NCBI GenBank assembly: GCA_036395115.1 | Contig: DASWDU010000011.1 | Coordinates: forward strand, 549 to 64,548 | Length of the DNA: 64,000 bases | Reading direction: 5' to 3' | Source of the DNA: Thermoplasmata archaeon | Lineage (GTDB): Archaea; Thermoplasmatota; Thermoplasmata; RBG-16-68-12 | Shown: positions 1-11,232 of the stretch, one piece after another | Layout: each line of letters starts with the position of its first letter | Position numbering within the stretch: position 1 is the first letter of the stretch | Made by a program: the position numbers and the translations under genes | Notes under the pieces: generated by a model | What the model saw: only the letters and a program-made list of their open reading frames with translations | Told to the model about the DNA's origin: nothing | Databases searched by the model: none

Positions 1-718
1 CCGGTTCAACGTGCAGATGATCCCCCAGGCCGCGATTGACATGTACTGGCTCCTCGCCGCGGTGGGCGTGATCTCGATCCTGTACGGCGCCGTCGTGTGC
101 CTCGCGCAGGACGACCTCAAGCGCATGGTCGCGTTCTCGAGCGTCAGCCACATGGGGTTTGTGACCCTCGGGATCGCCGCCGGAGTGTACGGCTACACGC
201 AGGTCGGGCTGAGACCCGGGGCCGTGCTCGGCTTCAGCGGCGCGATCTTCCAGATGTTCGCGCACGGGCTCGTGGCCGCCGCCCTGTTCATGGTCGCGGG
301 CTCGCTCGGCCACTCCCTCGGCACGCGGAACATCTCCGAGCTCGGCGGGATCGCGAAGAAGGTCCCGCGCCTGGCGACGTTCATGATGATCTCGTTCCTG
401 GCGTCCCTCGGGCTCCCCGGCCTCGTCGGGTTCGTCGCGGAGTTCTCCGTCTTCCTCGGGGTCTACGCCGCGTTCGGCCTGTGGGTCTTCATCCCGATCC
501 TGACCGTCATCCTGACGGCGGCGTATTTCATCTGGGCGATGCAACGCTCGATCTTCGGGCCGCTGAACCCGAAGTGGGAGGGCGCGAAGGACCTCCACCG
601 CTTCGAGGTCGCGCCGCTCGCCGTCCTCGCGGCATCGTTCGCGGTGTTCGGCATCGTGCCGGTGCTCCTTCTGGACCTCCTCTCGACGTGGTCGAGCGGC
701 ATCCTCGGAGGGCTGTGA
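1..718 (+). CDS. nuoM: NADH-quinone oxidoreductase subunit M, C-terminal part; the gene starts upstream of the window
   Basis: ORF 11..718 is a hydrophobic multi-TM protein with the NuoM/ND4 pattern (MVAFSSVSHMGFV, FQMFAHGL). It is in frame from the window edge. The stop at 716-718 is followed by a GTG start at 720. Confidence 0.8.
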   Translation, partial: RFNVQMIPQAAIDMYWLLAAVGVISILYGAVVCLAQDDLKRMVAFSSVSHMGFVTLGIAAGVYGYTQVGLRPGAVLGFSGAIFQMFAHGLVAAALFMVAGSLGHSLGTRNISELGGIAKKVPRLATFMMISFLASLGLPGLVGFVAEFSVFLGVYAAFGLWVFIPILTVILTAAYFIWAMQRSIFGPLNPKWEGAKDLHRFEVAPLAVLAASFAVFGIVPVLLLDLLSTWSSGILGGL

Positions 719-719
719 G

Positions 720-2291
720 GTGTCGAGCTACACGGTCTTCCTCCCGGAGGCGATCCTCGTCGTCACGGCGCTCGCCTCGGCGGTCCTAGGGTTCGCATGG
801 CGGCGCCGGCCGGAGGCGCTATGGGCACTCGCCTTGGTCGGTACCGGCCTCGCGGTGTTCATCACGCTCGACATGATGGGCCTCGGGATCACGACGGCGC
901 TGCGCGTGTCTCTGTGGCCGTCCCCCGTCGGCGCCGAAGGCGACTTCACCGCCGAGCTCAAGATGGACGTCGACCGATTCGCGCTCTTCTTCCAGGTGAT
1001 GTTCGAGTTCGTCGCCCTTCTCGCGATCCTGGCGTCCCGAGGCTTCATCCAGAAGGAGGAGCCGCACCAGGGCGAGTACTACGCGCTCATGCTCCTCGCG
1101 ATCGTCGGCATGATGTTCACCGCCGCGGCGACGGACCTGTTCGTGCTTTTCCTGGCGTTCGAGACGTCGAGCCTGAGCACGTTCGCCCTCGTCGCGTACC
1201 GGAAGCGGGACAAGCAGGCGACCGAGGCGGCGGTCAAGTTCTTCATCATCGGCGCGGTGAGTTCCGGCGTCGTCCTGTTCGGCATCTCGTTGATTTACGG
1301 GATCGCGGGCACCACGTCGATCCCGTCGACGACGGACCTGGCGCTCTTGCGGACCCACCTCGACCTGACGGCGTACCCGGCGATCGAGCCCCCGCTGATC
1401 ATCGCCCTCGTGTTCCTGATCGCGGGATTCGGGTTCAAGGTCGCCGTCGTCCCGTTCCACATGTGGGCGCCCGACGTGTACCAAGGATCGCCGACGACGA
1501 TCAGCGTCCTCCTCACGTCTGCGTCGAAGAATGTCGGGATCGTCGCCCTCTTCCGGGTGTTCCTGATCGGCCTGCTGAACGTCCAGGTCGACTGGGTCGC
1601 AACCCTCGCGATCCTCGCGATTGTGACGCAGACCGTGGGAAACGTCGTCGCGATCCCGCAGCGATCGATCAAGCGCATGCTGGCGTACTCGAGCATCGCC
1701 CAGGCCGGGTACATCCTGATCGCCCTCGCCGTCGGTGCGGTCGCCATCCAGTCGACGTCGCCGACGGACAACGCCGCGAATGTGGCCGCGTACGGCCTCG
1801 TCGGCGGTATGCTCCATGTGTTCGTCTACGCGGCGATGAAGGCGGGCTCGTTCCTCGTCGTCGCGGGCACCGAGTCGCGCGGCGTCCCGGACGACATCGA
1901 GGCGTACAAGGGCCTGAGCCGGCGGATGCCGTTCCTCGCGTTCTCGATGATGGTCTTCCTCCTGAGCCTCGCGGGCATCCCCCCGCTCGGAGGGTTCTTC
2001 TCGAAATTCGTCCTCTTCTCGAGCGCCGTCAACGCGGCGGCGTTCAACCAGTGGTACCTCGCCCTCGCCGTGTCCGGGGTCTTGAACAGCGCCCTCTCCC
2101 TGTACTACTACGCGCGGGTGATTTGGTACATGTACATCCTCGAACCGGAGGAGGGGGCGACGAAGATCTCCGCCCCGCGGTCGATCGACGCTGCAGTGTT
2201 CATCGCCCTGGCGATCGTGATACTGACCGCCATTCTCGCAGCGTTCTTCCTCAACTACCTGATCCAAGCCGCCCAGGGGTTCTTCTTCTAG
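720..2291 (+). CDS. nuoN: NADH-quinone oxidoreductase subunit N (complex I antiporter-like subunit)
   Basis: 523-aa polytopic protein with NuoN/ND2 motifs (FKVAVVPFHMWAPDVYQG, MLAYSSIAQAGY). It is tightly coupled to the upstream nuoM stop. Confidence 0.85.
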   Translation: MSSYTVFLPEAILVVTALASAVLGFAWRRRPEALWALALVGTGLAVFITLDMMGLGITTALRVSLWPSPVGAEGDFTAELKMDVDRFALFFQVMFEFVALLAILASRGFIQKEEPHQGEYYALMLLAIVGMMFTAAATDLFVLFLAFETSSLSTFALVAYRKRDKQATEAAVKFFIIGAVSSGVVLFGISLIYGIAGTTSIPSTTDLALLRTHLDLTAYPAIEPPLIIALVFLIAGFGFKVAVVPFHMWAPDVYQGSPTTISVLLTSASKNVGIVALFRVFLIGLLNVQVDWVATLAILAIVTQTVGNVVAIPQRSIKRMLAYSSIAQAGYILIALAVGAVAIQSTSPTDNAANVAAYGLVGGMLHVFVYAAMKAGSFLVVAGTESRGVPDDIEAYKGLSRRMPFLAFSMMVFLLSLAGIPPLGGFFSKFVLFSSAVNAAAFNQWYLALAVSGVLNSALSLYYYARVIWYMYILEPEEGATKISAPRSIDAAVFIALAIVILTAILAAFFLNYLIQAAQGFFF

Positions 2292-2356
2292 GCGTTCGAT
2301 TCGCCCGTCCCCGTGGCGAAGGATTTTATCTCAGGACCCGTCCATGAGGAAGCGCC

Positions 2357-3469
2357 ATGGCTTCGGCCTCCGCCGGATCGCGCGTCGTGTTGCACGTCGA
2401 CATGGACGCGTTCTACGCCGCCGTGGAGATTCGGGAGAATCCCGCGCTGGAGGGCAAGCCTGTCGTCGTCGGCGCGGATCCCCGCAAGCATCCGCGCGGC
2501 GTCGTCCTCACGGCGAGCTACGAGGCCCGACGCTACGGCCTGCGGTCCGCGATGTCGTGCGTGGAGGCGCTCCGCCGGTGTCCCGACGCCATCTTCGTGC
2601 CGCCGCACTTCGAGCTGTACGGCCGGGTGAGCGGCGAAATCATGGCGACCCTCCGCGGCTTCGCGGATCGTCTCGAGCCGAGCGGGATCGAGGAGGGCTA
2701 CCTCGACGTCACGAACCGGTGCGACGGGAACTTCTCCCGCGCTCAGGAGATCGCACGGGACATCAAGGCCGCGATACGGAGGGACCATCGGCTCTCCTGC
2801 TCAATCGGCATCGCGCCAACGAAGGCGCTCGCGAAGATCGCGTCGGACTTTGAGAAGCCCGACGGCCTCACGGTCGTCTCGCCCGACCACGTGGTCGAAT
2901 TCCTCGCACCGATCCCGGTCCGGAAAATTTCGGGCGTCGGCCCGAAAACCGCCGAGCGGCTGAAGGAGCTCGGGCTCGAATCGATTGGCGACGTGCAGCG
3001 GACGAACCGCCAAGACCTCGTCGAGCTCCTCGGGGCGTTCGGGGAGTACGTTTACGACGTCGCCCTCGGTCGCGACGCCGGCGAGGTGGTCGAGCCGAGC
3101 GGCCCACCGGAATCAATCAGTACGGAGACGACCTTTGCGAAAGACCTCGACTCGTATAGCACGGTCTGGCCCGAACTCGAGGCGCTCGCGAAATCGCTCC
3201 ACGAGCAGCTCCTCCTCGAGAAATACGCATACCGGACGGTCACCCTCAAGGCCCGATACTCGAACTTCGAGACGCACACTCGGTCGCGCAGCCTGAAGAT
3301 CCACACGACCGACCTGGATCCGATCTTGACCCTGAGCCAGATGATGCTCAAGGAGGTCCTCGCGCCCGACCGGAAGGTGCGCCTCATCGGCGTGCGGCTC
3401 TCGCACCTGAAGGAGCACGCGGCGCCGCAGGCCACGCTCGCGAAATGGTCGACCATTCCGCCCGATTGA
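2357..3469 (+). CDS. dinB: Y-family DNA polymerase IV (Dpo4/DinB-like translesion polymerase)
   Basis: N-terminal VVLHVDMDAFYAAVE catalytic motif, SIGIAPTKALAKIAS, and helix-hairpin-helix and little-finger regions. 370 aa. Confidence 0.85.
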   Translation: MASASAGSRVVLHVDMDAFYAAVEIRENPALEGKPVVVGADPRKHPRGVVLTASYEARRYGLRSAMSCVEALRRCPDAIFVPPHFELYGRVSGEIMATLRGFADRLEPSGIEEGYLDVTNRCDGNFSRAQEIARDIKAAIRRDHRLSCSIGIAPTKALAKIASDFEKPDGLTVVSPDHVVEFLAPIPVRKISGVGPKTAERLKELGLESIGDVQRTNRQDLVELLGAFGEYVYDVALGRDAGEVVEPSGPPESISTETTFAKDLDSYSTVWPELEALAKSLHEQLLLEKYAYRTVTLKARYSNFETHTRSRSLKIHTTDLDPILTLSQMMLKEVLAPDRKVRLIGVRLSHLKEHAAPQATLAKWSTIPPD

Positions 3470-3523
3470 GCGGAAGAGCTGGTCTCGAGAAACCCGACGG
3501 ACCGGCCCGAAACCAGAGGCCGC

Positions 3524-4471
3524 CTAGACGACCTTCACGTCGAGCGCCTTCTCGAGGTTCGGCATCTTGTTCGCCACCGTGAAGAACGGAGATCCGGCGA
3601 ACAACAGCCCGACGGCGCGGCCGTCGTACCCGACGATCGTGCTCCCGGAATCTCCGCCCGCGCTGAAGGACCCGCGCTCGCCCTTGATGATCATCTGGTC
3701 CGTGAAGACGTAGGCGCCTGTCGCGTAGCCCACCCGGAGCGTCGCGCTCGCGTCCACCACCGCTCCGTTCGTGAGGCGCGTCGTGCGGCCGCTCTTCATC
3801 ACCTTCTCGTCGAGCGTCGGCTCGCGGGTCCCCCGCAATCGGCCGATGTTCAGGATGTCCGGGGTCACATCCCGCGCGTCGAACGGGGCCGCGATTGCGG
3901 CGTCCACGAGGTTCGGACCTTCCGGGTCCACCGCGACGTACGTGTCGAGGCGACCGATCACGTCGCGGTCCGTCTTGCCGCCATCGAAGGTGCCGGGCTG
4001 GAGGACCGGATCCCCTTCGACGCCGCGGTTCTCATTCGCGAGGACGTGGTTGTTCGACAAGATGAACGTCTCGCCAGCGTCCTGCACGAGGCACGACATC
4101 GTGCCGGCGGTGATGGCGTAGTGACCGATCGACAAGCCGCCCATCGCGGGACGGACCTTCCGTTGGTAGATCGGCGGGATCGGGCGCCAGATCGAGAACT
4201 CGCCCGCCTCCTCGATGTCCGTCGGCACGCCCTCGATCTCGTCCGGGATCGTCCGACCGTCCTTCACGAGGAGGGGATGGAGCTTTTGGCGGACGTAGAC
4301 CTTCACGACGAGCTCGTCCGTCGGGAAGCTGCGGACTGTGCGGTGGCCGATCCCCACCCCGACGACGTCCGGGTGGGTCGACGGCGTCAGTCCCTCCCTC
4401 TCGATCCCGAGGAGTTGGCACTCGCAGACGAGCTTCGCGTCTTCCGCGTTCGGCGTCATCCCACCCTTCAC
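3524..4471 (-). CDS. S1-family chymotrypsin-like serine peptidase
   Basis: 315 aa with an LSNNHV His region and a GDSGS catalytic serine motif near the C-terminus. The N-terminal ~90 aa form a separate domain (VVGVGIG...VYV...IPDEIEGVPTDIEEAGEF). Confidence 0.75.
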   Translation of the reverse strand: MKGGMTPNAEDAKLVCECQLLGIEREGLTPSTHPDVVGVGIGHRTVRSFPTDELVVKVYVRQKLHPLLVKDGRTIPDEIEGVPTDIEEAGEFSIWRPIPPIYQRKVRPAMGGLSIGHYAITAGTMSCLVQDAGETFILSNNHVLANENRGVEGDPVLQPGTFDGGKTDRDVIGRLDTYVAVDPEGPNLVDAAIAAPFDARDVTPDILNIGRLRGTREPTLDEKVMKSGRTTRLTNGAVVDASATLRVGYATGAYVFTDQMIIKGERGSFSAGGDSGSTIVGYDGRAVGLLFAGSPFFTVANKMPNLEKALDVKVV

Positions 4472-4692
4472 AGGGCCTTGAAGGTCCCCGTCACCACGAC
4501 CTCGATGGGGATGTCGTCGAGCGAATCCGGGATTTGCGCTCGGATTCGAGGACTGTCCTCGTCCACGTAGATCCGGATGCAGTCCTTGCCGTCCTTACGC
4601 CCGATGCCGACCCCGACCACCCCCCGCATCTTCATGAGATGGGCCTCGTGTCGACGCTTCACTTCCTCCACGGACCCCATCGACGTCTCCAT
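4468..4692 (-). CDS. small protein (74 aa) paralogous to the N-terminal domain of the downstream S1 peptidase
   Basis: An internal ATG in ORF 4468..5046 gives METSMGSVEEV...VVGVGIGRKDGKDCIRIYVDE...IPDSLDDIPIEVVVTGTFKAL. Its stop overlaps the peptidase start (ATGA). It aligns with the peptidase N-domain. Confidence 0.5.
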   Translation of the reverse strand: METSMGSVEEVKRRHEAHLMKMRGVVGVGIGRKDGKDCIRIYVDEDSPRIRAQIPDSLDDIPIEVVVTGTFKAL

Positions 4693-4781
4693 AGGAACGA
4701 GCGGACGATAAATCCGTCGACGGTTTTCCGGACCGAGAGGCACCGGTCGAGACCGGCAAGCCGGGAGTTCGACCGCCCGGG

Positions 4782-6176
4782 TCAGGGCGGGGGTGGCCGG
4801 ATGAAGCCGTCCTGCATCAGGAACTTCGTCTCCTCGTGCGCGCGTCGGATCAGCGCGAGGGCGCCTTCGAGGAGCTCGTCGCGGCTCTTCGTGACGCGGG
4901 CGATCCCTTGGTCGATCGCCTTCCGGCCGACGGCGGCGGCCTCCCGGGCGAAGACGTCGATCTCCTCCATGGTCGGCACGATGTGCTCCTCGTCCAGCCC
5001 GCGCTCCTCCTGGACTCTCGCGAGCTCCTCCGCCGCGGCGATGCACATCTCATCTGTAATGGTCCGCGCCCGCACGTCGAGGGTGCCGCGGAAGATGCCG
5101 GGGAAGCCGAGGCTGTTGTTCACCTGATTCGGGAAGTCGCTACGGCCCGTCGCGATCACGCGCGCACCGGCTTCCGCGGCTTCCCACGGCCAGATCTCCG
5201 GCACGGGGTTCGCAATCGCAAACAGGATTGAGTCGTCTGCCATCGACGCCACCCAGTCCTTCTGGATGACGCCGGGTCCGGGCTTTGACGCCGCGATCAC
5301 AACGTCGGCGTCGGCCATCGCCTCCGGGATGCCACCCTCGCGGCCTTCGGCGTTCGTCGTCTGGGCGAGTTCCCACTTCTCGTGGTAATCGGCCGCCGCC
5401 GCTTCGATGTCCGCGCGCCGACGACCGACGATCCCTTTCGAGTCCACGAGGATGAGGTGGCCCGGCTTCGCGCCGGCGGCGATGAGCAGCTTCGCCGTCC
5501 GGATGTTCGAGGCGCCCGCGCCGACGAGGGTGATCGTCACGTCAGCAACCTTCTTGCCCACGACCTTCAGCGCGTTGATGACGCCGGCCACGTTGATCGT
5601 CGCGGTCCCTTGTTGGTCGTCGTGCCAGACCGGGATCTCGCACTCCTTGCGCAGCCGCTCCAGGATGCCGAAACACTTCGGCTGCGCGATGTCCTCGAGG
5701 TTCACGCCACCGAACGAGGGCGTGATGAGCTTGACGGTCTCGGTGATCTTCTCCGGGTCCTTCGTCGCCAGCGGGACGGGGAACGCGTCGACGCCTCCGA
5801 GGTACTTGAACAGGAGCGCCTTGCCTTCCATGACCGGTAAGCCCGCTTCGGGACCGATGTCGCCGAGGCCGAGGACGCGCGTGCCGTCCGTGACGACGGC
5901 GACCTGGTTCCACTTGTTCGTCAGCGTCCAGACCTTCTCGGGATTCGCGTAGATGTCGAGGCACGGCTGCGCCACGCCGGGAGTGTACCAGATCGCGAAG
6001 TCGTTGAACGTCCGCACGGGGACCCGCGGGACGATCTCGATCTTGCCCTGATAGTACGGATGGTACTTCGCGGACTGCTCCTTCGGCAAGTTCGCCTTGC
6101 GGAGGTTGTCCGCCACCTCCTGTGGCGTCGGCGCCTTGACGTCCTTCGAGCGCGCGCGCTTCTTGGTCGCGACCAT
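4782..6176 (-). CDS. NAD(P)-dependent malic enzyme (malate dehydrogenase, decarboxylating)
   Basis: 464 aa from an internal ATG (MVATKKRARSK...). Contains the malic enzyme N-domain (FAIWYTPGV) and a Rossmann GAGASN motif. The 5' extension of the 600-aa ORF is low-complexity and is rejected. Confidence 0.85.
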   Translation of the reverse strand: MVATKKRARSKDVKAPTPQEVADNLRKANLPKEQSAKYHPYYQGKIEIVPRVPVRTFNDFAIWYTPGVAQPCLDIYANPEKVWTLTNKWNQVAVVTDGTRVLGLGDIGPEAGLPVMEGKALLFKYLGGVDAFPVPLATKDPEKITETVKLITPSFGGVNLEDIAQPKCFGILERLRKECEIPVWHDDQQGTATINVAGVINALKVVGKKVADVTITLVGAGASNIRTAKLLIAAGAKPGHLILVDSKGIVGRRRADIEAAAADYHEKWELAQTTNAEGREGGIPEAMADADVVIAASKPGPGVIQKDWVASMADDSILFAIANPVPEIWPWEAAEAGARVIATGRSDFPNQVNNSLGFPGIFRGTLDVRARTITDEMCIAAAEELARVQEERGLDEEHIVPTMEEIDVFAREAAAVGRKAIDQGIARVTKSRDELLEGALALIRRAHEETKFLMQDGFIRPPPP

Positions 6177-6267
6177 GGGAACACGAGAACGGGCGGCCGA
6201 TGAGCAGAACGAAGTCGGATAAACCTTTGGTCCTCGGATGAAGGTCCGCGCCTGATCCGCGGAGTTC

Positions 6268-7059
6268 GTGCGTTCTTCCGATCCTCGCACGAAGCTTTTT
6301 CTGAATCGGTGGATTCCGATGGACGTGCTCCTCACGGTGGTGGACAAGGCGGGCGGGGGAGGGGTGCGGGAGGTCCGAGAGGCGTTCGAAACGGTCGAGC
6401 GCGGGTACGCGGAAGAAGGCTTGCGGCTGCGGTCGCCGGTCTCCGCCGAAATCGTCTCCATGCCGATCATGGGCGCCTCGAAATCCCTGAGCGACCGACA
6501 CACGCTCTTCGTCTCCGTGCGGGCGGTGCAATCGGGGACACTTGACGGCCTCGTCGCCCACGAGATGGGCCACATGCTCCGCACGGAAGCCCGCCACGCC
6601 TCGCACGATCCGGACGTTTACGGAGCCGTCAGCCGGGAGGTGCGGATTCCCCAGGCGGGGGAGGATGCGTTCTCGCAGGCTTTCAACCACATCCAGGACA
6701 TATACGCCGACGACCTGGCGTTCCTCGTCTTCGCCTCGGACGGCGGGGACCGAGCGTACCGATTCTTTGCGGGCTGGGTCGACGGGAACGCGGGGATGCG
6801 AGGCGAAGACCGCTGGCGGAACGTCGGGCTCGCGGTGAGCAACGGGTTCTCGCTCGGCAACCTGAGGCGGCACGCGCTGATCGCCGCGGATGACCCGCTA
6901 TGGGTTCGAGCGCGGACGTTCGACCGGGAGGCCGGCTTCGTCACGGTCGACGCCCTCGCGGAGTTCTTCGCGAACCTCCCAAACGACCCTTCCGGGGCGG
7001 CGTTCCTTTTCGAGGTGCGGAGGCTTGCCAGCCTGATGACCAAGGCCGCCCAGACGTAG
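6268..7059 (+). CDS. hypothetical protein with an HEMGH (HExxH) zinc-metallopeptidase-like motif
   Basis: 263-aa ORF with protein-like composition and the motif LVAHEMGHMLR. The start is uncertain (ATG at 6268 or 6319). Confidence 0.45.
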   Translation: MRSSDPRTKLFLNRWIPMDVLLTVVDKAGGGGVREVREAFETVERGYAEEGLRLRSPVSAEIVSMPIMGASKSLSDRHTLFVSVRAVQSGTLDGLVAHEMGHMLRTEARHASHDPDVYGAVSREVRIPQAGEDAFSQAFNHIQDIYADDLAFLVFASDGGDRAYRFFAGWVDGNAGMRGEDRWRNVGLAVSNGFSLGNLRRHALIAADDPLWVRARTFDREAGFVTVDALAEFFANLPNDPSGAAFLFEVRRLASLMTKAAQT

Positions 7060-7069
7060 GTCGGCAACG

Positions 7070-7078
7070 TTTAATATA
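7070..7078 (+). promoter_or_regulatory. TATA-box-like element TTTAATATA upstream of the mrp/apbC-like gene
   Basis: AT-rich octamer in a GC-rich intergenic region, about 40 nt upstream of the TTG start at 7116. Confidence 0.35.
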
Positions 7079-7115
7079 CGCGCGAATCTGACTCCGTATC
7101 TCTCCCGGTGAAAAC

Positions 7116-7991
7116 TTGGCCGAAGAACTCGAGACCGCGCAGATTCCCCCGCACATTATGGCGGCGATGCGCGAGCGCATGAAGATGGCGCAGCGAATGT
7201 CCCGCATCAAACACAAGATCGTCGTCATGTCAGGAAAAGGCGGTGTCGGCAAGACAACTGTTGCCGCCAATCTGGCGTGCGTCCTCGCCGAAGAAGGCGC
7301 CGTCGGCCTCGTCGACGCGGACGTCACAGGTCCCGACGTCGCGAAGATCATGGGCGTCGAAGACGCGCAGGTGAAGGCGACCGCGACGGGGCTCGAGCCG
7401 ACGATCGGCCCTGCCGGGGTGCGCGTGATCTCGATGGCCCAGCTCATCGAGCGCGACACCGCGGTCGTCTGGCGAGGGCCGCTGAAGATCAAGGCGTTGA
7501 AGCAGATGCTCTCCGACACCGAGTGGGGCGACCTCGACTATCTCGTGATCGACCTCCCACCGGGGACGAGCGACGAGCCGCTCAGCGTCGCCCAGGAGAT
7601 CCCCGACGCGGACGGCGCGGTCGTCGTGACGACGCCACAGGAGGTGTCTCTCCTCGACGTGCGTAAGTCGATCGCCTTCGCGAAAGCGGTGAAGCTGGAC
7701 ATCCTTGGAGTCATCGAGAACATGAGCGGGTTCGTGTGTCCGCACTGCGGCAAGCCGACGGACATCTTCAAGGTCGGTGGCGGCGAGGCCGCGGCAAAGG
7801 AGATGGGCCTGCCGTTCCTCGGCCGCATCCCGCTCGACCCGCGGATCGTCATCGGCGGAGACGCCGGCAAGCCGTTCGTGATCGAGCATCCGGACTCCGA
7901 GGCGGCAAAGGCGTTCCGAACGATCGTCGTGAACCTGAGGCCGCAGCTGAAGGAAGCGAAACCGCGCCCGACCGGTCCGCTCGCGCAGTGA
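7116..7991 (+). CDS. Mrp/ApbC/NBP35-family iron-sulfur cluster carrier ATPase
   Basis: P-loop GKGGVGKTT, deviant Walker A of the ParA/MinD type, and a CPHCG Fe-S ligating motif. 291 aa. Confidence 0.85.
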   Translation: MAEELETAQIPPHIMAAMRERMKMAQRMSRIKHKIVVMSGKGGVGKTTVAANLACVLAEEGAVGLVDADVTGPDVAKIMGVEDAQVKATATGLEPTIGPAGVRVISMAQLIERDTAVVWRGPLKIKALKQMLSDTEWGDLDYLVIDLPPGTSDEPLSVAQEIPDADGAVVVTTPQEVSLLDVRKSIAFAKAVKLDILGVIENMSGFVCPHCGKPTDIFKVGGGEAAAKEMGLPFLGRIPLDPRIVIGGDAGKPFVIEHPDSEAAKAFRTIVVNLRPQLKEAKPRPTGPLAQ

Positions 7992-8012
7992 GCCAGATCA
8001 AGCCGCCGTGGC

Positions 8013-8420
8013 TCACGTCCACCGATCGACGACCGCCTCGATTTGCGCCCGCGGCAGCGCGCCCACGAGGCCCTCCACGAGCTTCCCGTCCTTGAAGAGG
8101 AGCATCGTGGGGATCGAGCCGACCTGGAACCGAGCGGGCGTCTGCGGACTCTCGTCCACGTTCAGCTTGCCGAGGCGCATTCGGCCCACTCGAGCCTTCG
8201 CGATGTCTTCGAGGACCGGCGCGACGCGGTGGCACGGCCCACACCACTCCGCCCAGAAGTCGACGAGCAGCAGCCCAGGCCTGCGGACCTCCGCCTCGAA
8301 CGTGGTGTCGGTCAAGGTGATCGGGCCGGTCCATGCCGGCGGCGCGGGCTTCGGCGCGAGTGCCGCGAGCAGCTCTTGACGCTTCCTCGCACGGATCGCC
8401 TCGAGATCGGGATCCTCCAT
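8013..8420 (-). CDS. trxA: thioredoxin
   Basis: WCGPC active site in the C-terminal 135 aa (internal ATG MEDPDLEAIR...). The 283-aa ORF's N-terminal extension is Arg/Pro-rich and is rejected. Confidence 0.7.
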   Translation of the reverse strand: MEDPDLEAIRARKRQELLAALAPKPAPPAWTGPITLTDTTFEAEVRRPGLLLVDFWAEWCGPCHRVAPVLEDIAKARVGRMRLGKLNVDESPQTPARFQVGSIPTMLLFKDGKLVEGLVGALPRAQIEAVVDRWT

Positions 8421-8464
8421 GCGGAAACCCACTTGGACGGGCGGATAAAAGCCTTTGGTCCCGC

Positions 8465-9796
8465 TCAGCGTGGGATCTTCGTGACGGAGCCGAATTCCTC
8501 CGCCATCTGACCCAGGAGCCGGAGCTCGCGCCGGACGAGCGCGATCTCGCGTTCGCCGAACGCGGTCGGGTCGAACGGGACGAGGAGGATCGCCTCCCGC
8601 ATCGCGACGGATTCGCTCAGGTCGTGCAAGAGGGCGAGGACCGAGCCGAAGTCGTTGTGCGACACGAGGTACTCGAACCCGTCGAGGAGGACGATCGGGT
8701 TCTCGCTCACCTCGATGAAATGCTCGACCGCCAACGCCACCTTCTCCGGTGGCGACGGCCGGATCGCGTTCTTCTCCGTCGCGACGCGGCTCAGCCAGAG
8801 CACGGGCGTCTTCTCGAGCCCGTATTCCGTCATGACGGACTTCGGCGAGCGACGGGTGATGCACAGGCCTTGCGCCCCGTGCGTCACGGAGTCCTTGAAG
8901 ATCTCGAACGCCTGGCCCGCGTCCCGTTCCAGGACGGCGTACGCGTGGCCTCGGTCCAACTCGTACGTCGGCTTCGTGAGCAGGTGCGCCTCCGCCTCCG
9001 GCAGGATCAGTGCCTGCAGGAACGACTTCTCGCGGACCCCGAACGCGATCAGCCCGACGAGCGCCATCTCGACGATGAACCCGGGCGCCCGCAGGTCGAT
9101 CCCGTTGTTCGGGAGAAAGATCTCGAAGAGGAGTTCGCCGACCGCAAACCCCGAGATCCCGAAGATGATGAGGAACGTGTCCCGCCGGACTTCCTGCCCG
9201 GGTTTCGTCTTACGCAGGTACGCGACGAACCGGTACGGAGCGTAAAGGATCAGCGTCGCCACCGCGAAACCGTTGATGAATAGGAAGTACGGCTCGAACG
9301 AGATCACGGTCGGGTTCGTCGAGATGACCTGGACCGGGGACACGAGGATCGTGATGATCGTGATGACCATGATGAACACGTAGAACACGTACGAGCTCGG
9401 GAACTCGTCCGTCATGTAGGCCGCGAAGTCCTTGCGCGAGCTGATCGCCGGCGTCGTCGCGACGACGATGAACGCGCCGATCGCGATCGCGAACAGGTAG
9501 TCGAACGTCGCCTGAACCCGCTTCGACAGGACGATGCCGTCTTTGAGAGACTGGATGAACTGTTGTCCCGGTTCGGTGACGTAGATCCCAATGAGGACGT
9601 TCGAGATGATCGCGCAGACCAGCAGGGAGACCGCGAACAACAGAACGTGCTTCTGGAACACCCGGTGCGTCTTCTGCCGCGCGATCGCGACGATGATGAG
9701 GATCGATAGGAATAGCGCGCTCGCGGCGCTCAGGTACGAGACGATGCTGTCGCTGGCGGCCAGGGAGAGTCCCCCGTTTCGACGCTGCACCAACAC
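8465..9796 (-). CDS. polytopic membrane protein with a C-terminal DUF835 domain
   Basis: N-terminal ~270 aa has 7-8 predicted TM helices. The C-terminal ~170 aa match the DUF835 pattern (WLSRV...VLLDGFEYLVSHNDFGSVLALLHDLSE...LLVPFDP). Confidence 0.7.
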   Translation of the reverse strand: MLVQRRNGGLSLAASDSIVSYLSAASALFLSILIIVAIARQKTHRVFQKHVLLFAVSLLVCAIISNVLIGIYVTEPGQQFIQSLKDGIVLSKRVQATFDYLFAIAIGAFIVVATTPAISSRKDFAAYMTDEFPSSYVFYVFIMVITIITILVSPVQVISTNPTVISFEPYFLFINGFAVATLILYAPYRFVAYLRKTKPGQEVRRDTFLIIFGISGFAVGELLFEIFLPNNGIDLRAPGFIVEMALVGLIAFGVREKSFLQALILPEAEAHLLTKPTYELDRGHAYAVLERDAGQAFEIFKDSVTHGAQGLCITRRSPKSVMTEYGLEKTPVLWLSRVATEKNAIRPSPPEKVALAVEHFIEVSENPIVLLDGFEYLVSHNDFGSVLALLHDLSESVAMREAILLVPFDPTAFGEREIALVRRELRLLGQMAEEFGSVTKIPR

Positions 9797-9939
9797 GCGT
9801 CCGGCAGGCTATTTAAGCGGTCCCTAGCGGTTATCCGGAGCGATTCCAGCCGCCCCGTGTTCTCAAGAATAAGAATCGTGGCGGAGAATCAACACGGGCT
9901 CGTTCATATGCACCGTGGGCAACGACTCTCCTGAATTCG

Positions 9940-11232
9940 GTGACGCTCCAACCCGCCGTCCCGCTCGGCATCAACCGGGAGGACCTGGAACTCCTGTCCC
10001 GGACGGTCTTACGCCTCGGCGGATACGCCGAAGGCCTCTTCGAGTTCCATGACTTCGGGTTCGACAAGGCCTCCTTGCGGGACCACATCACGAACGTTCA
10101 CAAGGCTTTGAAGGAGCTTCGGGAGAACTCGACCTCAGGCGGCATCCCCCTGCGTCCGCCGAACATCCCGCCTGGGGCGTTCTGGGAGGACCAAGGCGAG
10201 GTGTGGAACTACCTGCAGACGCTCCGTTTCGCGGCGGGGGCGACGATGATGACGGAGCAGTTCAGCCCTCACATGCCGCGGGAGAACATCGCGAAGACAA
10301 TGACCGCGAAGGTCTACCGGGAATGCGTGATCGGCATCCTGGACGACCTGATCGACAAGGGGGCGTACTCGTACCTTGAGGCGAAAGACCTGCACCACAT
10401 GGTCCTCAGCACGATGTTCGATCCGGACTTCGATTCGACGTCGTTCATGAAGCGCCTGGTGACGATGCTGCGCCAGGACCAGATCCCTTTGTTCGACTTG
10501 ATCAACAACATCACCCGCGGGTTCAACGTCCTCTGGAACCACGCCCCCCATGGGGCCGACTACTTCTATCAGATGGAGATCATGAACGAACGCGTGGCCC
10601 TGAGCCAGGCCCTGACGATGTACCAGAAGGAACCGAACTTCTCGGTCGGTCGGATGGAGAAGGTCTCGGAGAGCTTCTACGCGCCCGACGACTCAATCAA
10701 TTGGTGGGAGAAGCTCGGCGGGCACGTGAGCGTCGCGAGCGGGCACAACCTGATCGACATGGCCTTCACCGACCAATCGTACGACCTCCGGCAGATGAAG
10801 AACTTCCTCGCAGGATGGTACTACTACGACGCCGCCGTGATCCTGATGGACCACGTGTCGAGCATCCACCAGGACCTCCGGAACGGGATTGCGAATCTCT
10901 CGCTCATCGCGATGCGGCAGAAGGAGCTCCGCGAGCTGACATCCCTGAAGAACTACAACCCGCACCTGACGATCGAGGACTACGACGCGCACCTGCGGCG
11001 CATCGCCGACCTCACGTCGATGGGGCTCCGCCTCGCGACGAAGGACATCCCGGACGAGAACCTCGTCTACCCGTTCATGACGATCATGATGCCCGTCGTC
11101 ATGATGGCCGACTGGATCGGGAACCGGGATGACATGATCCATACATTCCTCGAGGCGATCGCGCCCACGGTCAAGAGCGTCGCGGCCAACGGCAAGGTCC
11201 CGATGCGGGCCGTCGCGTCCGTCGCGGATTAG
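9940..11232 (+). CDS. hypothetical soluble protein with a DDLID (DDxxD) motif, immediately upstream of idsA
   Basis: 430 aa, predicted all-alpha, with GILDDLIDKG. No confident family assignment could be made from the sequence. Confidence 0.5.
   Translation: MTLQPAVPLGINREDLELLSRTVLRLGGYAEGLFEFHDFGFDKASLRDHITNVHKALKELRENSTSGGIPLRPPNIPPGAFWEDQGEVWNYLQTLRFAAGATMMTEQFSPHMPRENIAKTMTAKVYRECVIGILDDLIDKGAYSYLEAKDLHHMVLSTMFDPDFDSTSFMKRLVTMLRQDQIPLFDLINNITRGFNVLWNHAPHGADYFYQMEIMNERVALSQALTMYQKEPNFSVGRMEKVSESFYAPDDSINWWEKLGGHVSVASGHNLIDMAFTDQSYDLRQMKNFLAGWYYYDAAVILMDHVSSIHQDLRNGIANLSLIAMRQKELRELTSLKNYNPHLTIEDYDAHLRRIADLTSMGLRLATKDIPDENLVYPFMTIMMPVVMMADWIGNRDDMIHTFLEAIAPTVKSVAANGKVPMRAVASVAD

Follow-up and report, generated by a model that had tools for sequence, protein, structure and literature searches.

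The 64,000-nucleotide stretch of Thermoplasmata archaeon DNA analysed here (the window) carries on its minus strand a small gene, probably of 70 codons plus a TGA stop (4468..4680; MGSVEE...TFKAL), followed by the gene of a serine peptidase of 311 residues plus stop (3524..4459), and the small protein is, to judge from profile comparison and predicted structure, a free-standing paralogue of the N-terminal domain of that very peptidase. The peptidase, in turn, is on the same kinds of evidence a prokaryotic relative of the rice protease NARROW LEAF 1 (NAL1), and the small gene would encode an N-terminal alpha/beta domain of the NAL1 type standing by itself. On comparative grounds the two genes form a conserved unit, which adjoin each other in 50 of 75 loci, in both orders and in about ten phyla. 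We consider it on balance probable that the product of the small gene is a non-catalytic partner which acts in trans, binding the protease domain and controlling how the protease folds, assembles or works.

Relationship between the small protein and the peptidase

The sequence-only reading of the window had noticed that the small open reading frame (ORF) resembles the N-terminus of the adjacent peptidase, and the similarity proves significant once the two segments are properly aligned: in BLASTP the proteins of the window are 26% identical over 58 columns (E 0.003, as a single comparison), and hhalign between 37 small homologues (alignment A1) and 33 peptidases (alignment A2) gives a probability of 96.4% and E 1.2e-9 over 69 columns, pairing residues 7-74 of the small protein with residues 4-92 of the peptidase. 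With the A1 hidden Markov model (HMM) run over all six-frame ORFs of the window, no second copy of the small domain was found, and the only match besides the small gene itself was the peptidase N-terminus (E 5e-5); the small-family HMM likewise matches the N-terminal domains of peptidases from archaea and bacteria, with E-values from 1e-5 to 3e-16. In the AlphaFold2 models, the order of the predicted helices and strands is identical in the small protein and in the N-terminal domain of the peptidase (residues 1-92; 4184..4459, minus strand).

The two copies appear, from their sequences, to be old and not to be undergoing homogenisation, since within one locus the small protein and the N-terminal domain share 35% identity (at most 46%), which is close to the 38% shared by archaeal and bacterial small proteins. 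A comparison of identities gave no signal of recent duplication, gene conversion or monophyly, and no clear separation. The motif VKRRHE is invariant in the small family and absent from the N-terminal domain of the archaeal peptidases, although a related motif (IQNKHT, for example) is present in that of the bacterial ones.

The small gene and its product

By its pattern of conservation, the small ORF is a real gene maintained under purifying selection. Its homologues, 45-100% identical to it, fall into 81 clusters, which come without exception from metagenome-assembled genomes (MAGs) of Thermoplasmata type; most are 70 residues long, and in A1 they share the invariant core VKRRHE...GVVGVGIG...YV...P...G. 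Where the peptidase is present, the pairwise ratio of nonsynonymous to synonymous substitution rates (dN/dS) is 0.36, a figure that a one-residue indel in three sequences has inflated; where the peptidase is absent, it is 0.18. The concern that the frame might be spurious and absent from relatives is dispelled by these figures, and the translation of the minus-strand frame given in the sequence-only reading (4468..4692) is exact.

The AlphaFold2 model of the small protein has a predicted local distance difference test score (pLDDT) of 77, with helix a1 at residues 8-20, strands b1 and b2 at 25-33 and 36-43, helix a2 at 48-53 and strand b3 at 61-67. Among its Foldseek matches the top template-modelling (TM) scores belong to NAL1 (8pn2_A; TMq 0.55, root-mean-square deviation 3.6 over 71 columns, E 0.12) and to the pro region of alpha-lytic protease (2pro_A; TMq 0.52, a non-significant E of 0.1). 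Database profiles added little: Pfam has no match to the window small protein at E up to 1; NCBIfam has none to either window protein, and neither do the anti-phage defence and toxin-antitoxin models of PADLOC at E up to 0.1. Thirty-eight diverse standalone members of the family were also compared with Pfam: NAL1_N (PF25608) matches none of them at E up to 0.1, nor does any other Pfam family of relevance, and for the alpha-lytic pro-domain model (PF02983) the window proteins are without a match as well. Sequence searches of the PDB with the small protein and the family profile returned chance-level matches only, such as RRM domains (E 0.2) and a mussel thread protein (E 0.06).

Gene starts and putative promoter

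In the sequence-only reading the small protein had 74 residues, from the ATG at 4692 (M1), and the stop of its gene overlapped the start of the peptidase as ATGA. The ORF on which the length was based is sound, but the probable start is methionine 5 (ATG 4680), where most homologues of the small protein begin, and the product is thereby shortened to 70 residues. The spacing of a TATA-box-like ATTTAT (4708..4713, minus strand), the putative archaeal promoter of a two-gene operon, points the same way: in the window a (G)TTTAT (4713..4708) ends about 27 nucleotides upstream of ATG 4680, and the same motif, or TATAT in two loci, is equally spaced in most of the Thermoplasmata relatives examined. 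Given the usual archaeal distance from TATA box to start, the transcript would be leaderless, with its first nucleotide at about 4680-4684, and the upstream ATG at 4692 would be excluded.

As to the overlap, what the TGA of the small ORF (4470-4468) meets is a GTG at 4471-4469, giving GTGA and not ATGA. This GTG opens the longest form of the peptidase ORF (3524..4471) and is the less likely start; in the homologue alignment, homologous peptidases of 309-311 residues begin where the ATG at 4459 stands, and the window protein would begin MTPNAEDAK. The small gene ends 8 nucleotides upstream of that ATG, the spacer AGGGTGGG (4460..4467, minus strand) being purine-rich and Shine-Dalgarno-like, and translational coupling through ATGA is accordingly rejected, because the stop overlaps a GTG and the homologues start 8 nucleotides further downstream. 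In relatives, the spacers measure 4-12 nucleotides, with a GGAGG-like Shine-Dalgarno motif inside that of L079 and L080, and a true overlap of 4 nucleotides occurs in one relative only (L083).

The peptidase as a relative of rice NAL1

The sequence-only reading took the adjacent ORF for an S1 peptidase, and a chymotrypsin-fold serine peptidase it is: the catalytic domain (residues 110-311; 3527..4132, minus strand) has an intact triad of His138 (4046-4048), Asp186 (3902-3904) and Ser271 (3647-3649), invariant in 33 homologues and aligned, through the motifs NRHV, D-G-A and GDSGS, with H234, D291 and S385 of NAL1, which are the catalytic residues of the rice enzyme (PMC12012508). The Pfam model Nal1_C (PF25819, PA clan) matches the 311-residue protein marginally (26.6 bits where the cut-off is 26.1; E 4e-6), and a precomputed match to it is found in most of the peptidase homologues; NAL1_N (E 6e-4 over residues 37-81, counted from the GTG start) and Trypsin_2 match below threshold. 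A phmmer search of the PDB with the peptidase returned the chains of rice NAL1 and no others (E about 1e-3, residues 38-293).

The AlphaFold2 model of the peptidase (pLDDT 86, predicted TM-score 0.87) is matched by NAL1 (8hau, 8pmi, 7y77) at E 1e-16, probability 1.0 and TM-scores of 0.66-0.71 over about 340 columns in Foldseek; the next tier is formed by S1E proteases (alpha-lytic protease, SGPB and glutamyl endopeptidase), at E 1e-8 and in the catalytic domain only. In the N-terminal domain the model has a helix at residues 3-17 and strands at 32-42, 45-56 and 78-84. As query residue 38 is paired by phmmer with about residue 114 of NAL1, the archaeal N-terminal domain would correspond to the ATP-binding domain of the rice protein, and the small protein, by transitivity, would correspond to it as well.

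Between the two domains lies the linker WRPIPPIYQRKVRPAMG (residues 93-109; 4133..4183, minus strand), of which the alignment columns are almost invariant although it is predicted to be disordered in the monomer model (pLDDT <50). This conserved segment, also written WRPIPPIYQRKVRPAMGG, could serve as a contact between subunits or be a site of processing.

Conservation of the gene pair

A scan with A1 of one genome per GTDB species gave 75 loci, which were classed with an HMM of the catalytic domain alone. The small gene lies directly upstream of a NAL1-type peptidase gene in 36 of them and directly downstream in 14; in two the domain is fused to the C-terminus of the peptidase (L040, L047), in two the match is the peptidase's own N-terminal domain (L074, L076), in 14 a peptidase is lacking for 1.5 kb or more to both sides, and seven are cut by the end of a contig. 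The pair recurs well beyond the Thermoplasmata. The phyla represented include Thermoplasmatota, Gemmatimonadota, Ignavibacteria, Zixibacteria, Chloroflexota, Acidobacteriota, Firmicutes, Acetothermia, Bacteroidota and Proteobacteria. The order with the small gene first is found in Thermoplasmata, Gemmatimonadota (Palauibacter), Holophagales, Syntrophomonadaceae and Acetothermia, and the reverse order in Zixibacteria, Ignavibacteria, Chloroflexota, Cytophagia, Melioribacteraceae, and gamma- and alphaproteobacteria. When the search was seeded with the peptidase instead, all five loci looked up (54-72% identity) had the small gene directly upstream, as confirmed by HMM.

Nearly all the partnered peptidases keep their own N-terminal domain, and a Dehalococcoidia locus (L041), in which a peptidase devoid of it adjoins the small gene, may be a true split. 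In several pairs a lipoprotein peptidase has a small partner that is a lipoprotein as well (L033, L036, L054, L071). In one of these loci, from an Ignavibacteriales MAG (L036:3237-6228), two tandem paralogous lipoprotein peptidases of the NAL1 type are followed by a single lipoprotein small-domain gene. In two Phototrophicaceae chromosomes (L064 and L077, at about 6000 and 9900-11200) a small-domain ORF stands some 4 kb upstream of a NAL1-type peptidase.

In two relatives, cargo has been accommodated between the malic-enzyme gene and an intact small gene-peptidase pair (L081:1300-2128 and L079:1330-2565), consisting in one locus of a VapB-like antitoxin with a gene for 196 residues, and in the other of an ammonium transporter.

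Loci that keep the small gene without the peptidase

Eight Thermoplasmata loci (L005, L018-L021 and L024-L026, from the Methanobacteriota/Thermoplasmata MAGs EA_2, 6, 10, 11, 12, 13, 17 and SMAG_U13408) preserve the synteny of malic enzyme, small gene and DinB with the peptidase gene missing. A ninth, in the Thermoplasmata MAG contig DASQXV010000059.1 (L006:1729-1900), has a remnant of the peptidase directly after the intact small gene, in which codons 3-30 (64% identity) are joined to about 284-304 by an internal deletion of some 760 bp, and is, by its sequence, a fresh case of peptidase loss with retention of the small gene. In all nine the small gene is intact and under strong purifying selection (dN/dS 0.18). 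The small proteins of the peptidase-less subclade have a C-I-C motif in common, and in most of the nine loci the C-terminal tail reads F-T-T/S-R in place of the earlier F-K/R-A-L/R, FKAL being kept in L005.

The wider family of small domains

The A1 profile was searched against 1.84 billion representative proteins (clusters at 50% identity) and matched 3,320 of them at E up to 1e-3, of which 432 remain at the stricter limit of 1e-10. Among the top 150 representatives, of which 147 could be counted by architecture, 116 are single-domain proteins; 43 of these have no more than 22 residues ahead of the domain, like the window protein, and 45 begin with a hydrophobic segment of the signal-peptide or lipoprotein type. 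Between two and five tandem copies make up a further 15 of the 147, and in 16 a NAL1-type catalytic domain is followed by the small domain; about ten of the latter are full-length proteins, in which the catalytic domain comes right after the signal peptide, with no N-terminal domain. No catalytic domain was seen without at least one copy of the domain, be it N-terminal, C-terminal or in trans. The N-terminal extensions of the family range from 0 to about 680 residues, whereas at the other end the domain reaches to within five residues of the C-terminus in 120 of the top 150.

Five of the tandem proteins (P0202, P0205, P0212, P0227 and P0332) consist solely of two to five small domains, mostly behind lipoprotein-type signals and with no catalytic domain, an architecture that recalls the multi-headed protease inhibitors.

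Genomic neighbourhood

The pair lies in a stretch (1-9800 of the window) of housekeeping character, syntenic in relatives and with no look of a mobile element or a defence island. On one side are Nuo/Mrp-type antiporter subunits (11-2291, plus strand) and a DinB-type polymerase (2357-3469, plus), convergent with the peptidase gene; on the other, the genes of a malic enzyme (about 4782-6180, minus), a DUF5781 protein (6268-7059, plus), an Mrp/ParA-type ATPase (7116-7991, plus), a thioredoxin (about 8013-8420, minus) and a DUF835 protein (8465-9796, minus).

Discussion

Comparison with known systems

The closest known structure is that of NAL1 itself (PDB 7Y77, 8HAS, 8PMM; NAL1_N plus Nal1_C), with which the archaeal peptidase shares the N-terminal alpha/beta domain, the linker, the chymotrypsin-fold domain, the triad and the overall fold; the domain matching NAL1 residues 89-172 is the one to which the small protein is paralogous. 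In the rice enzyme these residues constitute the ATP-binding domain, built from a curved helix and four strands, which packs on the protease domain of a neighbouring subunit to make a trimer and is required for assembly and activity; it is a permanent part of the enzyme, serving as ATP-binding domain and trimer interface and not as a cleaved pro-peptide, and the activity depends on a hexameric cage (PMC12012508). However, NAL1 is a single eukaryotic polypeptide, for which no free copy of the domain is mentioned in that work, it has long extra regions at both termini, the identity is only about 18%, and ATP binding and the hexameric cage are known for the rice enzyme alone.

A second point of comparison is given by the small bacterial chymotrypsin-fold proteases. 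The S1E proteases need N-terminal pro regions to fold, and the pro region of alpha-lytic protease is both a folding catalyst and a tight inhibitor, whose C-terminal tail lies in the active site; it works in trans, as Silen and Agard reportedly found in 1989. Here too an alpha/beta domain is placed ahead of the protease, and the free C-terminus of the small family, after its last strand, recalls that tail. In contrast, there is no detectable sequence relationship to the S1E pro region (PF02983) and the structural match is non-significant (E 0.1); the free domain has here a gene of its own, and the enzyme keeps its own copy of it, with no known cleavage.

Helpers in trans are also known from other enzymes. 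The lipase-specific foldase Lif (LipB) is encoded in an operon with its lipase, and is to that extent likewise a private helper placed next to its hydrolase client, but it is unrelated in sequence and fold and is not paralogous to any domain of that client. PepSY proteins are stand-alone propeptide-like inhibitors for M4 peptidases. The same principle is known for subtilases (MEROPS I9), as in the Plasmodium SUB1 propeptide-like inhibitor (PMC6993865), and for cathepsins (I29; PMC4089206). These three cases share with ours a separately encoded copy of the N-terminal accessory domain of a protease, sometimes tandem or secreted, that acts, or in our case would act, in trans; they differ in that their folds and protease clans are others, and for our small protein inhibition is only a candidate role. 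We know of no such stand-alone partner for PA-clan or NAL1-type peptidases.

A probable trans-acting partner of the protease domain

A functional link between the small protein and the peptidase is strongly implied by the comparative data, because both gene orders are adjacent across some ten phyla, C-terminal fusions occur and the export signals often match. We would picture a single leaderless transcript that encodes first the 70-residue protein and then, 8 nucleotides on, the peptidase with its own copy of the domain; the small protein would dock on the protease domain as the covalently attached domain does, and this docking would control the folding, the oligomeric assembly or the activity of the protease. 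That the small protein acts on the protease domain in trans is the most likely interpretation, and we infer physical binding, because both gene orders are conserved, because the domain may stand before, after or apart from the catalytic domain, and because the corresponding domain of NAL1 binds another subunit.

As roles, the sequence-only reading had suggested a trans-acting pro-domain, an intramolecular-chaperone mimic, or an inhibitor or immunity partner, and each of these would be a candidate. With respect to the precise role, we lean slightly, by analogy, towards a pro-region-like inhibitor or regulator, of which there are hints in the S1E-like catalytic domain, the weak match to 2pro_A, the free C-terminus, the secreted tandem arrays and the lipoprotein partners. 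The role of an assembly subunit would be a better fit to two other facts, namely that the NAL1 domain is permanent and required for activity, and that each catalytic domain is accompanied by at least one copy. More speculatively, and as an idea that we consider rather unlikely, the family of about 70 residues could be a new class of trans-acting, pro-region-like regulators (inhibitors or foldases) of PA-clan NAL1-type proteases, and would be to the S1 proteases what I9, I29 and PepSY are to theirs. In that case plant NAL1 would owe its ATP-binding domain to such a pro-domain, turned into a permanent assembly module, and the free copies would titrate the assembly or activity of the cage, by competing for the surface of the protease or by inserting their C-terminal tail in its active site.

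Several observations weigh against the small protein being simply a partner of the peptidase. The small gene is found with no peptidase within 1.5 kb or more in 14 of the 75 loci, and its retention under selection where the adjacent gene has gone indicates that the protein is not useless without that gene, and would have a role in its absence, unless a NAL1-type peptidase is encoded elsewhere in the genome; this argues against a strictly dedicated partner of the adjacent peptidase, and in the genomes concerned the small protein would have either another target or a further function. The export signals are mismatched in three pairs (L060, L069, L039). Furthermore, no Pfam model, NAL1_N and the alpha-lytic pro-domain model included, matches the small proteins; every Foldseek match of the small model is non-significant (E 0.01 or higher), and so is the hhalign comparison of the family with the rice NAL1 segment (probability 4%), in which nevertheless the expected segment was aligned.

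Alternative explanations

It could be, alternatively, that the small protein has a function of its own apart from the protease, such as the binding of nucleic acids or ligands through the basic VKRRHE helix, and that its position is a relic of an old domain duplication. This would accommodate the purifying selection where the adjacent peptidase is deleted, the 14 loci with no peptidase nearby, the invariance of VKRRHE in a family whose archaeal paralogous domain lacks it, and the weak similarities to RRM, KH and ribosomal-protein alpha/beta folds. However, those similarities are non-significant (E 0.01 or higher) and a VKRRHE-related motif does occur in the bacterial N-terminal domains; the adjacency is kept in both orders and about ten phyla, and through local rearrangements, the domain is repeatedly fused to the protease, and the export signals often match between the partners; we regard an independent function as unlikely.

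Still less probable, in our estimation, is a dedicated steric chaperone, needed in trans once to fold the adjacent peptidase and then released or degraded. It is true that the S1E proteases are the nearest structures to the catalytic domain after NAL1, that the small model has 2pro_A among its highest-scoring matches by TM-score, and that a copy of the domain accompanies each catalytic domain seen, whether N-terminal, C-terminal or in trans. But the peptidase has a copy already, and it is not obvious why it should need another as a foldase; a foldase with a single client would be expected to decay once that client is lost, and yet the small gene is conserved with no adjacent peptidase; the NAL1 domain stays in the enzyme as a permanent part of its structure; and no sequence match links the small protein to the pro-domain family. 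Finally, the notion that the small ORF is a chance open frame deserves consideration because the window, being GC-rich, contains many long ORFs that are spurious, on either strand, but with 81 homologue clusters, 3,320 representatives of the family, a dN/dS of 0.18-0.36, a conserved promoter-like motif and a confident, consistent fold prediction, the probability left to it is negligible, and the conservation data lead us to reject it.

Novelty and significance

Full-text searches of the literature found no description of prokaryotic NAL1 homologues or of the pairing of the small gene with a peptidase, in agreement with the sequence-only reading, which had not recognised the two-gene arrangement as a described one. 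Free-standing copies of accessory domains are known for other protease clans, and what appears to be new here is their existence for chymotrypsin-fold enzymes of the NAL1 type.

NAL1 is an agronomically important rice protease, of which the ATP-binding domain and the cage assembly were solved only in 2023-2025. In prokaryotes its accessory domain emerges as a mobile module, which may be N-terminal, C-terminal, repeated in tandem arrays, or encoded by a separate gene beside the protease, and a large family of small proteins is thereby defined, of about 3,300 clusters at 50% identity, with no Pfam match and with a testable role as trans partners. If this role is true, the family would provide a natural regulator of, or tool for, NAL1-type proteases, as well as an evolutionary explanation for the NAL1 domain, and the propeptide-like partner that stands alone, a principle so far familiar from subtilases, cathepsins and M4 peptidases, would be extended to the enzymes of the chymotrypsin fold.

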